Positions 15,233-21,360 of a stretch of 53,992 nt of DNA are shown one piece after another (position 1 is the stretch's first letter; each line of letters starts with the position of its first letter). The stretch is from Opitutia bacterium (GTDB taxonomy: Bacteria > Verrucomicrobiota > Verrucomicrobiia > Opitutales > UBA2995). Location: assembly GCA_014529615.1 (NCBI GenBank), contig JAABVD010000002.1, positions 1,750 to 55,741 of the forward strand, written 5' to 3'. Position numbers and translations under genes: made by a program. The notes beneath the pieces were generated by a model, which was not told the DNA's origin, did not search any database, and saw only the letters and a program-made list of their open reading frames with translations.

Positions 15233-15302
15233 AGGGAAATTAAAGATGAAGGGGTGAAGATGAAGGGGCGGTTTCATCTGTCAAGCGTAATTTGGAGTCA
15301 GC

Positions 15303-15680
15303 TTTGGACCTCGTAAGCCGGATTCTGTCATCCCGAACGGGATGGGCATTCATTCATCTAACAAGCAACCTTGTTTCCCGCCAAGCGGGATGCGACACAC
15401 CCGGGACGATTGGGCGGACCACCCCGTCCCCTACTTTGTCTTGCACCGAATTGGGTTTATCCTGCCACCCCGGTTACCCGGGAGCGCGGTGAGCTCTTAC
15501 CTCACCTTTTCACCCTTACCCTTCGCGTTGCGCCGGGCGGTTTGTTTTCTGTGACACTGGCCGTCACCCTGAATTAAGGCAGGGCGCCCCCGTTTTCACG
15601 GGGAATTCCGTCCTGTGGTGTCCGGACTTTCCTCTCACATTGCAAAGAACCGAGCGAATGCCTGAAATCCAAAGCTAACT
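15303..15680 (-). ncRNA. rnpB: RNase P RNA, bacterial type A
   Basis: The reverse complement contains GAGAGGAAAGTCCGGAC, ACAGAAAAC, GGGTAAGGGTGAAAAGGTGAGGTAAGAGCTCACC and ACAGAATCCGGCTTAC. A 17-bp P1 stem forms between AGTTAGCTTTGGATTTC at the 5' end and GAGGTCCAAAGCTGACT at the 3' end. Confidence 0.93.
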
Positions 15681-16388
15681 CGCAAAGTAGACCAATCTTC
15701 CACAATTATGGCAGGTCGTCAACGCCACACCTTTGCGGGCTTTTTCCATTATTTCATTGGAAACCCGCAAATGGCACCCCAGACACTTCTGCATCTTCAA
15801 CCCCACCACCACGGGCAGTTTCATCCGGGCCGCCATGGGCCGGTAGGCTCTGAGATATGCAGGGTCGATATCACGGTCGGCCGATTGCAAGCGAAGGGCG
15901 GCATCCGCCAACCGGTTTTTCAAATCGGCCCTACGGTTTTCCAGCACGGCAATTTTTCGCTTAATCAGCTCGGTGGAGGAGGCGAGGGAGGCCTCTTGTT
16001 TTTTGTAGTTTTCGGTTTCGCTATCGATCTCCAGCATCAGGCCGATCTCCTCTTCCTCCCAATCGAGAATCTCTTTTTCCAGCCCTTCAATTTCGTGGAT
16101 CAAGGCTTGATATTCCTCATTTTTCTTTACCTGCAGTTGCTGGTTTTTGTAGCGCAGAATCTGCTCCTGAGCCACACCCACCCGGTTATCGAGGTCTTTG
16201 CGCGAGACTTCCATCTTCCGTAGCCTCGCTTTGGCATCGGCCAAGGTTTTTTCCTCAGCCTCAATAGTGTCCTGCAACCGTTTCACGTCGATCGGGATGG
16301 CCTGCAGGAGTTGCTCCAGATGGCGGACCTTTTGCTCGCAGGCCTGCAGGGCAAGCAGTTTTTCGATTTGCGGATTCAGGTGAGCCAT
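15675..16388 (-). CDS. Coiled-coil protein with C-terminal C4 zinc ribbon (COG1579/DUF164-like)
   Basis: A long heptad-rich region is followed by CLGCHLRVS...CHNCGRLVYF. The start is placed at the ATG at 16388; the ORF track uses a TTG at 16427. The TAG stop overlaps the 5' end of rnpB. Confidence 0.75.
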   Translation of the reverse strand: MAHLNPQIEKLLALQACEQKVRHLEQLLQAIPIDVKRLQDTIEAEEKTLADAKARLRKMEVSRKDLDNRVGVAQEQILRYKNQQLQVKKNEEYQALIHEIEGLEKEILDWEEEEIGLMLEIDSETENYKKQEASLASSTELIKRKIAVLENRRADLKNRLADAALRLQSADRDIDPAYLRAYRPMAARMKLPVVVGLKMQKCLGCHLRVSNEIMEKARKGVALTTCHNCGRLVYFAS

Positions 16389-16459
16389 GGCTTGTGCAAG
16401 TGTGTCGTCCCGGGAATAACCCGGCAATTATTTGTATAGGGAATTTCCGGGACGTCACA

Positions 16460-16873
16460 CTAAATGTAATACATATCCTCGCTTTCCTCGGGCAGGAAGG
16501 ATTCCAGGGTATAACTCTTGGTTTTTTCCGATAGGGTTTCCACTACTTCGGACCAAACTTTTGCAACACCCCGCCCCGACCAACCGTTCGGCGCGAGGTT
16601 GATAGCCAACAGCTCTCCCTCCATGATCGAGACGATATCAAACAGGGTTATTTGGGCCGGTGGTTTGGCCAAACGGTAACCTCCCTGCTTTCCCCGCCGA
16701 CTGATAATCAAACCCCCGTTGCGGAGGTCGTTGAGGATCTGAACCAGATAATTTGCCGGGATTTCCTCGAGCTCGGCCAACTCGTCGATTCGGGAAAAGG
16801 GCCTGCTGCCGTAGGATCGGCTCAACTGGGCCAAAACACGGCAGGCGTACTCGACTTTCAAGGAGAGTTTCAC
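16460..16873 (-). CDS. Rrf2 (BadM/IscR) family transcriptional regulator
   Basis: The sequence is MKLSLKVEYACRVLAQLS...IPANYLVQILNDLRNGGLIISRRGKQGGYRLAKP, a winged-helix Rrf2 signature. The start is GTG. Confidence 0.9.
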   Translation of the reverse strand: MKLSLKVEYACRVLAQLSRSYGSRPFSRIDELAELEEIPANYLVQILNDLRNGGLIISRRGKQGGYRLAKPPAQITLFDIVSIMEGELLAINLAPNGWSGRGVAKVWSEVVETLSEKTKSYTLESFLPEESEDMYYI

Positions 16874-16950
16874 CGGAAAGACAAAATCTTGAGATCGGTG
16901 CCCTTGTAAACAAAATAGGGAATCGGTATGGTTACGACGCCTCCAAAGTC
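16784..16950. repeat. Copy A of the duplicated rrf2 5' end / rrf2-gyrB intergenic / gyrB codon ~20-25 segment
   Basis: It aligns with 18629-18912 at roughly 85% identity. A 117-nt internal gap (18780-18896) is bounded by the GGTTA microhomology. Copy A ends 1 nt before the glpD stop codon. Confidence 0.85.
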
Positions 16951-16951
16951 A

Positions 16952-18529
16952 TCATTCCGGGAGGTAACCCCTGGCCAACGCATTGAACGCCCTCACCTGC
17001 TCTTCGACCCAGTCGTCGCCGTGACCCAGTTCGCGCGCCATGACGCGTGCAACGGCGGGCGCGGCCGCCACGGCCGCCCTCGCGTTGAGGAAGAGTGCGC
17101 GGGTTCGCCGCGCGAGCACATCGTCGAGCTGAACGGCCATCTCACTTTTCGCCGCCCACGCGGCTTGGCTCAACCGGTAGGGCAGGCTCGGATGCATGAG
17201 GCGCGTCAGGCGCTCGTCCTCAGCCTCCAGTTGGCGGATGGCTTCGGCGTCGCTACCGTACATCCTCCAGGGGTCGAGAATGTCTCGCCGGGTGGAATAG
17301 CCGTGCAGCCGCAGCCTCGCCGTGACCGAATGGGCGCTGGACAGGCGGCCCACTTCGGCGGCCCTACCGACCGCGTCCTGCGCGACCTTACGGCAGGTGG
17401 TCCACTTGCCGCCGGTGACGGTGACGAGTCCGCGCCGGGAGACACTCACGCTGTGGTCGCGCGACAGCGCCGCGGTATCCTGATCGGGACCGGATGCCGT
17501 GAGACCCCGCAACCCGGCCCAGGCGGAGAGGATGTCCGCACGCCTGATCGTTCGCGTGAGATAGCCCCCCGCATGGTCGATCAGGTAGTCCACCTCGGCC
17601 GCGCTGGGAATCGGTTCCTGCGAGGGCTCTTCCACCGGGATGTCGGTCGTCCCGATAAGCACGTGGCCGTGCCAGGGAATTGCGAAGAGGATGCGCCCGT
17701 CGTCGGTCGAGGGGACCAGCAAGGCCGTGCGGCCCGGTAGAAAGGCGTTGCTCACCACGATGTGTACGCCCCGGCTGAGCATGACCGAGGGAGCCAGGCG
17801 CGGTTCGTCCATCCGGCGCAGCGAGTCGGCGAATGGACCCGCAGCGTTGACCACCACCGCCCCGCGCGCGACCCACTCGTTTCCGCCGAGGAGATCCCGA
17901 ACCTCGACCCCCTTCACTTTCCCCCGCGCTTCGACCAACCCCACCACTTCCGCGTAGTTCAGCGCGACGCACCCCAGGTTGGCGGCGGTGCGGATGAAGG
18001 CCCATCCCAGGCGGGCGTCGTCGAACTGCCCGTCGTAGAAGAGGACGCCGCCACGGAGATGGTGGCTGTGTAGCGTCGAGAGGTGTTTGAGGGATTCGCG
18101 GCGGCTTACCAGGCGCGAGGAGCCGAGGTTCCGGCCCAAGGCCAGGGCGTCGTAGAGCTTGAGGCCCAGTCCGTACCATGGGCGCTCCCACCAGCGATAC
18201 GCCGGCACCAACAGCGGCAGGCTCCGGACCAGATGCGGCGCGTTGGCCCGGAGGCGGCGCCGTTCATCCAACGCGCGGTAGACGAGCCCGATCTGACCCT
18301 GACGGAGGTACCGGACCCCACCGTGGATGAGCTTGGTGCTGCGGCTGGATGTGCCGCTCGTGAAATCGCCGCGTTCCACCAGGAGGGTCCGGTAACCGCG
18401 CGCCGAGGCGTCGAGGGCGGTGGCGAGCCCGATGCAGCCTCCCCCGACCACGATGATGTCCCAGGAGCGCAACTGTGTTGCCCGGTCGAGCATGTAGCTG
18501 CGGGGAAGTGCGCGTAAGGATTCGGACAT
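16952..18529 (-). CDS. glpD: FAD-dependent glycerol-3-phosphate dehydrogenase
   Basis: It has the dinucleotide-binding motif DIIVVGGGCIGLATALDASARG and SGTSSRSTKLIHGGVRYL. The ATG is at 18529; the ORF track extends to a TTG at 18565. GC is much higher than in the flanks: sampled 60-nt lines give ~68-77% against ~47% in gyrB. Long shadow ORFs appear in other frames. Confidence 0.92.
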   Translation of the reverse strand: MSESLRALPRSYMLDRATQLRSWDIIVVGGGCIGLATALDASARGYRTLLVERGDFTSGTSSRSTKLIHGGVRYLRQGQIGLVYRALDERRRLRANAPHLVRSLPLLVPAYRWWERPWYGLGLKLYDALALGRNLGSSRLVSRRESLKHLSTLHSHHLRGGVLFYDGQFDDARLGWAFIRTAANLGCVALNYAEVVGLVEARGKVKGVEVRDLLGGNEWVARGAVVVNAAGPFADSLRRMDEPRLAPSVMLSRGVHIVVSNAFLPGRTALLVPSTDDGRILFAIPWHGHVLIGTTDIPVEEPSQEPIPSAAEVDYLIDHAGGYLTRTIRRADILSAWAGLRGLTASGPDQDTAALSRDHSVSVSRRGLVTVTGGKWTTCRKVAQDAVGRAAEVGRLSSAHSVTARLRLHGYSTRRDILDPWRMYGSDAEAIRQLEAEDERLTRLMHPSLPYRLSQAAWAAKSEMAVQLDDVLARRTRALFLNARAAVAAAPAVARVMARELGHGDDWVEEQVRAFNALARGYLPE

Positions 18530-18628
18530 TGGTGTGGTCGGCTGCTTCCTGAACTTGAGTTCCAAACGCCCCTATTGGGATGGCAATCGTCCTGTGGCGG
18601 CAATGGTGCGGACGCTAATCATCCGCCG

Positions 18629-21360
<2,732 letters not shown>

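Follow-up and report, generated by a model that had tools for sequence, protein, structure and literature searches.

The stretch of DNA analysed here (the window, 53,992 nucleotides (nt) of contig JAABVD010000002.1 in the Opitutia bacterium assembly GCA_014529615.1, positions 1,750 to 55,741 of the forward strand) carries between rrf2 and gyrB a GC-rich glpD gene, located at 16952-18529 on the minus strand and encoding a 525-amino-acid (aa) protein of the flavin adenine dinucleotide (FAD)-dependent glycerol-3-phosphate dehydrogenase/oxidase family. Judging by its phylogeny and composition, this gene is a xenolog from Longimicrobiales (Gemmatimonadota). It was probably acquired once, a long time ago, as a single open reading frame (ORF) that became fixed at the join of a duplication of host DNA, and afterwards the structure decayed differently in each lineage and was lost from some of them by recombination between the flanking repeats. 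The source genome, which belongs to a sponge-associated Opitutales bacterium and is referred to here as G000, is a 3.41-Mb metagenome-assembled genome (MAG) in 387 contigs, in which the window corresponds to contig C384. An original prediction, made from the letters of the window, had attributed the gene to horizontal acquisition in which the target became duplicated and no transposon took part, and this proposal is now supported by the GlpD phylogeny, by base composition and by the repeats.

The donor could be identified from protein comparisons. Outside the genus, all close relatives of this GlpD (69-82% identity) come from Longimicrobiales/Gemmatimonadota, and verrucomicrobial GlpDs, those of the same family and order included, are only 42-53% identical. 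In a maximum-likelihood tree of 51 GlpDs (LG+C20), the four copies from the Opitutales genus form one clade (100/99) nested in the Gemmatimonadota clade (long stem 100/100, subclade 99/96), and the 15 verrucomicrobial GlpDs are placed elsewhere, indicating that one transfer took place from Gemmatimonadota to Opitutales. The locus surrounding an 80%-identical Longimicrobiales homolog (L028) has 65-73% GC throughout. The names of several donor-clade MAGs (SB06xx, RHO and APA bins) may point to an origin in sponge microbiomes.

Base composition agrees with this provenance. Sliding-window GC is 0.67-0.70 across 17050-18550 and 0.47-0.57 on either side, and the glpD ORF, with a GC of 0.6825 against a genome mean of 0.5416 (standard deviation (sd) 0.027, z 5.3), is the maximum of the genome, a value that no window of equal length (1,578 bp; 5,368 examined) reaches. 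Therefore, the higher GC of the glpD segment noticed at first sight holds both locally and genome-wide; the flat value of about 47% then given for gyrB is right for the lower end of this gene and wrong as a single figure, the range being about 0.47-0.56. The long shadow ORFs reported at that stage do exist as well. Six of them lie within the segment, none with a match to any Pfam family, and glpD is the only real ORF there; such overlapping long ORFs are those expected of GC-rich DNA.

The architecture of the locus was recovered independently from a second strain. In a protein search, a GlpD with 98% identity was detected on contig L027 (61.7 kb) from another ENA assembly, in which the spacing is identical to that of G000 (308 nt between gyrB and glpD, 78 nt between glpD and rrf2). 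When this contig was aligned base by base, both junctions, both repeat copies, a 52-nt filler and a scrap of gyrB described below were all found to be present, together with single-nucleotide polymorphisms (SNPs) of its own, namely 3 in 311 nt at the left junction and about 20 in 481 nt at the right one, which demonstrates that L027 represents a different strain that was independently assembled. Additionally, GC-rich glpD genes, placed between rrf2 and gyrB with unchanged orientation, were identified in further carriers, namely two Opitutales MAGs (G004 and G005), a contig labelled 46x (L109) and a pair of short-read contigs (L110/L111). No relative was found in which a glpD of ordinary GC occupies the site without duplication, as the original prediction had considered; instead, the relatives' gene is GC-rich and decayed remnants of the duplication lie beside it. 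Two exact-pattern scans of Joint Genome Institute (JGI) metagenome contigs returned no match, the second using a pattern (CTCGAG...) that would miss G000 itself (CTTGAG).

In G000, glpD is enclosed by a direct repeat of 154 nt with 88% identity (16784-16937 versus 18629-18782). Copy A (16784-16937) comprises rrf2 codons 1-30 and 64 nt of the rrf2-gyrB intergenic region, and copy B (18629-18782) comprises a decaying rrf2 stub (rrf2', codons 1-30) and the corresponding intergenic region. Next to copy A, a scrap of gyrB (gyrB') covering codons ~19-25 (16930-16950, plus strand) matches 18892-18912 at 20 of 21 positions, has the identical sequence in the second strain, directly adjoins the glpD stop codon and is joined, across a deletion of 117 nt, to the intergenic copy through a GGTTA microhomology. 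Copy B contains GGTTA motifs at 18775 and 18892, a distance of 117 nt, where copy A has a single one at 16930. Thus, the duplicated rrf2-gyrB flanks, the 117-nt deletion of copy A between GGTTA motifs and the gyrB scrap beside the glpD stop, all three inferred in the original prediction, were borne out, the flanks amounting to 154 nt (88% identity) and 21 nt of gyrB.

On the opposite side of the gene, a 47-nt leader upstream of the glpD ATG (18530-18576, minus strand) is common to G000, G004, G005 and L109, is unlike the donor and holds the stop codon of the rrf2' stub ORF, which spans 48 codons at 18572-18718 on the minus strand. The boundary of this leader is identical in all carriers (CCCCTATT). 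It is followed by the 52-nt filler (18577-18628), which occurs only in G000 and the second strain and stands in for the part of the duplicate running from the Zn-ribbon gene copy (ZnRib') to rrf2 codon 31. Local alignment of the filler with rrf2 and the Zn-ribbon gene gave a score of 9, which is not significant, as 570 of 1,000 shuffles scored at least that high, and the sequence was found nowhere else in the genome. The full divergent intergenic region of copy B, read from the sequence, lies at 18719-18837 and is 93% identical to the empty-site sequence of a relative (G003); it would serve gyrB on the plus strand, and its minus strand reads into the rrf2' stub and then into glpD.

Candidate mobile elements were also considered at this locus. 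Repeat and ORF checks detected no inverted repeats at the segment boundaries, no terminal inverted repeats and no transposase, as already stated in the original prediction, and the flanking repeat consists of at least 154 nt of host genes. Likewise, no integrase, tRNA target or plasmid or phage remnant was found near the locus, and no attC-like structured repeat was seen at the glpD 3′ end, where a dedicated attC model search was not made. With none of their defining features present, the transposon, integron and integrase-island readings were rejected.

The extent of the original duplication emerged from the other carriers, which have retained different portions of it. In G004, the spacer contains the start of the Zn-ribbon gene (~10 codons, E 2e-7), together with ~106 nt from the 3′ end of rrf2 (81%, E 4e-22), followed beyond an internal deletion by the intergenic region and then gyrB. 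The G005 spacer has retained the 5′ piece of the Zn-ribbon gene, and that of L109 includes 225 nt at 81% identity (E 1.5e-52) covering the start of the Zn-ribbon gene and the spacer between it and rrf2, and then the rrf2 3′ end (E 3e-14). Combined, these remnants, which do not overlap, point to an ancestral direct duplication of ~700 bp running from Zn-ribbon codon ~10 to gyrB codon 25. Therefore, the 284-bp duplication proposed at first stands as far as the two G000 copies are concerned, and its original extent has to be revised to ~700 bp from the G004, G005 and L109 remnants. A candidate gyrB-start scrap beside the glpD stop in G004 (ATGTCCA...) had no significant BLAST match and was dropped. 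In G005 (L021 4145-4747 and 6326-6898) and L109, 300-600 bp of repeat-rich DNA, including GATCAC hexamer arrays, GGTCAGT/TATCAGT tandems and GAAAGAG runs, was observed on either side of glpD, as if the mosaic intergenic repeats of the genus had colonised the duplicate during its decay.

The imported DNA itself can be delimited closely. Homology to Longimicrobiales DNA extends from about nt 16-19 of the glpD ORF to within ~10 nt of its stop, and the first five glpD codons and the 47-nt leader, common to the carriers, have no likeness to the donor. Because the homology is confined to the ORF, the import was essentially a bare, slightly 5′-truncated ORF. Taken together with the duplication remnants, these features would be explained if a promoter-less, ORF-sized fragment of Longimicrobiales glpD entered the ancestor of the Opitutales genus once, before the split of G000 from G004/G005/L109, and was fixed at the join of the ~700-bp direct duplication comprising Zn-ribbon codon ~10, rrf2, the intergenic region and gyrB up to codon 25. 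The ancestral order would then have been ZnRib, rrf2, intergenic, gyrB' / glpD / ZnRib', rrf2, intergenic, gyrB. The breakpoints would have fallen inside genes, gyrB included, which is an essential gene, and each host gene would have kept one intact copy. The likeliest route, as inferred from this arrangement, would be that a linear fragment was joined illegitimately, through microhomology, by its two ends to staggered sites on sister chromosomes; in a two-step variant, insertion into the Zn-ribbon gene would have been followed by homology-facilitated illegitimate repair with wild-type DNA. Subsequent decay would have taken different courses: in G000, the gyrB' stub would have lost 117 nt between the GGTTA repeats and the second rrf2 would have been cut to 30 codons plus the 52-nt filler, and in G004 and L109 ZnRib' and the rrf2 3′ end would have been kept instead.

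This arrangement also suggests how a promoter-less import could be transcribed. On the minus strand the order is intergenic copy B, rrf2' stub and glpD; since glpD is downstream of a second copy of the putative rrf2 promoter region, and co-directional with rrf2, it could be expressed from there. A sigma-70-like site (TTGAGA, 16 nt, CAAAAT) was observed in copy A at 16889-16916 on the plus strand, pointing into the glpD 3′ end. It corresponds to the promoter region on the gyrB side, of which it is an orphaned copy, and could give rise to antisense transcription of glpD.

The age of the import and the constraints on it were assessed from substitution patterns. At third codon positions, the GC content (GC3) of the Opitutales glpD copies is 0.80-0.84 (0.84 in G000), compared with 0.86-0.93 in the nearest Longimicrobiales and 0.64 in the host (sd 0.05, 957 long ORFs). 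When substitutions were polarised with four Longimicrobiales outgroups, 135 GC-to-AT changes were counted in glpD versus 20 AT-to-GC changes, and the bias, 39:7 on the shared stem, is present on every later branch. Amelioration had therefore begun before the carriers diverged. The G000 glpD has 89.0% identity to its G004 counterpart and 90.1% to that of L109, values close to the 83-89.5% of the flanking core genes. By codon position, the glpD identities are 92.6/94.5/80.4%, which indicates purifying selection. The gene would thus have remained under purifying selection while it drifted to the base composition of its host.

The gene has a patchy distribution in the genus. It is present at the site in three of the seven genus genomes, and rrf2 and gyrB are contiguous in G001, G002, G003 and G006. 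In a tree of 1.8 kb of flanking core DNA, G000 groups with G003 (support 100), then with G001 and G006, and G004/G005 and the outgroup G002 are the most distant. At sites that distinguish the repeat copies, the derived C at 16832 and 16896 in copy A is shared only with the left copies of G004/G005, and T at 16817 occurs only in copy A and G003. On the other side, T at 18685, G at 18688 and AA at 18720-18721 (register 16840, 16843 and 16875-6) are found only in copy B and G003, and the left part of copy B has 5-6 changes absent from every other genome compared. Counted over both parts, G003 matches copy A at 55 of 56 sites on the left and 85 of 98 on the right, and copy B at 50 of 56 and 91 of 98, respectively. 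It follows from these matches that the single copy of G003 combines the left part of copy A with the right part of copy B, the switch falling between 16817 and 16832. This mosaic is the signature of one crossover between the repeats, the direction of which the mosaic itself does not show.

Because glpD has diverged together with its flanks and the integration is shared with distant carriers, vertical descent with loop-out losses is the most economical account of this distribution. Most likely, the gene would have been lost again in G003, G001 and G006 by recombination between the flanking repeats, which would restore a clean rrf2-gyrB site. In G001 (L024, at the equivalent of window positions 16430-16740), only rrf2 codons 1-47 are kept, 16 nt from the Zn-ribbon start, and rrf2 therefore appears dispensable there. 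This truncated rrf2 could equally be a copy-B stub retained after loop-out or the product of a plain deletion, and it was not used as evidence.

Several observations weigh against a single ancient integration with subsequent decay and loss. For vertical descent with loss to hold, the gene must have been lost precisely on three separate occasions. Nor do glpD and its flanks diverge in a fixed proportion, as glpD differs by 7.4% between G004 and G005, whose flanks differ by 3-8%; this unevenness may be due to recombination or to assembly errors in G005. The support for the junctions consists of independent assemblies, not raw reads. The gyrB end of the duplication is placed by a lone 21-nt scrap present only in G000 and the second strain, and the 52-nt filler at 18577-18628 is not accounted for by this history. 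Furthermore, a scan with consensus promoter and terminator patterns detected no sigma-70-like promoter on the minus strand of the intergenic region. Finally, the best NCBIfam match of the protein (PRK12266, 267 bits) is under the 360-bit equivalog cut-off and, with scores of this kind, any assignment of its exact substrate and electron acceptor would be provisional. As a separate observation on G005, its gyrB (L021 6899-9566) reads as two ORFs of 371 and 609 aa that overlap, and a TGA occurs within the extended frame of glpD; both are likely consensus errors, and the divergences measured for this genome may be inflated.

Among the alternatives, re-acquisition within the genus has a modest chance of being correct. 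It assumes that the ancestor of G000 and G003 was empty and that a cassette consisting of the right part of copy A, glpD and the left part of copy B arrived from an unsampled congener, either by a Campbell-type single crossover of an excised circle or by a homologous double crossover. This would account for the nesting of G000 among three empty-site relatives, for the G004/G005-only states in the right part of copy A (16832 C, 16896 C) and the G003-only states in the right part of copy B, and for the coincidence of the two switch points at ~16817-16832, as a single crossover predicts. However, the reverse reaction, a loop-out in G003, predicts exactly the same mosaic. Moreover, the divergence of glpD from its G004 and L109 counterparts is about that of the flanks, so that the donor must have belonged to a branch of the G000 clade that has not been sampled. 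A donor of this kind is not known, losses elsewhere are still needed and the events are more numerous overall.

A second alternative, which we consider doubtful, concerns the original event, for which it invokes Campbell-type integration of a circle that carried ~700 bp of host ZnRib-rrf2-gyrB DNA and the foreign ORF, by means of one homologous crossover. The architecture is that of insertion-duplication, with direct repeats of one host segment around the insert. The product would be the same as that of staggered end joining. Nevertheless, a chimeric circle, with host DNA fused to both ends of a bare foreign ORF, would have been needed beforehand, which only shifts the illegitimate joins to an earlier step, and the locus is devoid of plasmid, phage or integrase remnants.

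A somewhat more speculative proposal, to which only a slim likelihood can be assigned, is that glpD behaves as an integrase-free cassette mobilised by recombination, in which a RecA-type crossover between copies A and B would excise a circle with glpD and a hybrid repeat, which a single crossover in the opposite direction could insert again into any congener whose rrf2-gyrB site is empty. If this were true, the patchiness of the gene and the coincident switch points of G000 and G003 would result not from loss alone but also from recurrent rounds of excision and re-integration among symbionts sharing a sponge.

The chimeric metagenome assembly raised by the original prediction, two strain variants joined via foreign DNA, could appeal to the 387 contigs of the MAG and to the 12% difference between the repeat copies, as two strains might have, but its probability is practically nil given an independent contig from another sample and strain with the same junctions and its own SNPs, the occupation of this site by glpD in four more congeners (G004, G005, L109, L110/L111) and the copy B changes found in no single-copy genome. 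Equally negligible is a native, vertically inherited verrucomicrobial glpD made GC-rich by selection or local bias, whose only support is its presence in three species of the genus, because the GlpD tree nests the gene in Gemmatimonadota, GlpDs of the same family and order share no more than 42-49% identity with it, the GC-to-AT substitution bias is strong and the site is empty in four congeners, the outgroup G002 included.

The single import at a duplication join, with later decay and loss, can be compared with several known systems. Promoter capture by tandem duplication is described for the Salmonella his genes (Anderson & Roth 1978) and for the Cit+ rnk-citT rearrangement of the E. coli long-term experiment (Blount 2012), both summarised in PMC11111574 together with the activation of transferred genes (Li & Bock 2019). 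As in those cases, a direct duplication of host DNA would have arisen here without long homology, a promoter-less gene would have come to lie behind a putative host promoter at the join, and the duplicated copies are redundant and unstable. The difference is that the captured gene there is inside the duplication and is itself duplicated, whereas here a single foreign ORF stands at the join and only host DNA is duplicated. Unlike the laboratory intermediates, the glpD structure is ancient and decayed, and its use of the promoter is a proposal from sequence.

A resemblance also exists to the illegitimate integration that accompanies transformation, for which PMC8116780 points to its references 41 and 50. 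Both involve non-homologous DNA, no transposase, integrase or attachment (att) site, and joins inside genes with short or no homology. In the present locus, the original junctions are too decayed for microhomologies to be read. The usual outcome of illegitimate integration is reportedly the replacement or deletion of recipient DNA, unlike the duplication of a recipient segment found here. With Campbell-type insertion-duplication, the locus shares the direct repeats of a host segment and the reversibility by loop-out, which fits the empty sites and the A/B mosaic of G003, but it has no circular vector and no replication or integration functions, the cargo being one bare ORF. Similarly, glpD resembles the contents of genomic islands, insertion sequences (IS) and composite transposons, and integron cassettes in being a compositionally atypical accessory gene of patchy spread; it differs from them in having no tRNA target, integrase, transposase, terminal inverted repeats, short target-site duplication or attC-like element.

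The processes invoked here, namely horizontal transfer, promoter capture through duplication and loss through repeats, have all been known before, and the locus is no new kind of system. Its value resides in an unusually complete natural record of transfer, proposed promoter capture and probable loss acting together. Most inferred bacterial gene transfers no longer reveal their route of integration; here, at least five genomes keep different decaying pieces, which allows reconstruction. The locus offers a parallel from nature to what has been found in the laboratory on illegitimate recombination and on promoter capture by duplication, and it documents gene flow from Gemmatimonadota to Verrucomicrobiota. 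With its flanking repeats, the glpD insert also carries its own means of clean loss.

As for the protein itself, its membership of the glycerol-3-phosphate dehydrogenase/oxidase family is firm on domain evidence (Pfam DAO 1.9e-56, DAO_C 4.5e-20), the domain set being full length with PF01266 at residues 36-390 of the TTG-start ORF and PF16901. The start codon is the ATG at 18529, rather than the TTG at 18565. Glycerol kinase was found above the TIGR01311 cut-off in all seven genus genomes and GlpD only in the carriers, so that glpD fits an existing pathway. Judging from gene content, the transfer would supply the step from glycerol kinase to dihydroxyacetone phosphate (DHAP) in a genus otherwise without a GlpD enzyme. 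A second glycerol kinase beside a 34%-identical GlpD/GlpO-like gene was observed in G004 (C3:2301684-2304817) and G005 (C10:437082-440216), a paralogous module absent from G000. Additionally, G002 contains at C1:4332376-4333020, ~25 kb from its rrf2-gyrB locus, two fragments of another glpD (residues 31-144 and 484-535, 50-56% identity), which probably represent a pseudogene of a different glpD lineage.

With respect to composition elsewhere in the genome, the second most GC-rich spot (0.68) lies at a contig end (C190:6872-9004, minus strand) and is an ORF of 710 aa with a C-terminus like that of autotransporters; it may also have been imported from a GC-rich source, or it may stem from contamination during binning.

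The genes neighbouring glpD are rrf2, the Zn-ribbon gene, rnpB and rpsT, with all of which it is co-directional, and gyrB/gyrA. The intact rrf2 (16460-16873, minus strand) encodes an Rrf2-family regulator of 137 aa (Pfam Rrf2 3.5e-27, TIGR00738). The CdsZ-like Zn-ribbon coiled-coil gene (15675-16427, minus strand), identified by Pfam Zn_ribbon_9 and NCBIfam CdsZ-like matches, is the one whose first ~10 codons belonged to the original duplicated segment, as its decayed 5′ copies upstream of glpD in G004, G005 and L109 attest. The intact gyrB occupies 18838-21360 on the plus strand (Pfam gyrase B domains), and gyrA is next to it. Between the Zn-ribbon stop codon and rpsT, a full-length class A RNase P RNA (223.5 bits) lies at 15299-15673 on the minus strand, and no other part of the left flank is as well conserved among the genomes of the genus (93-99% identity).

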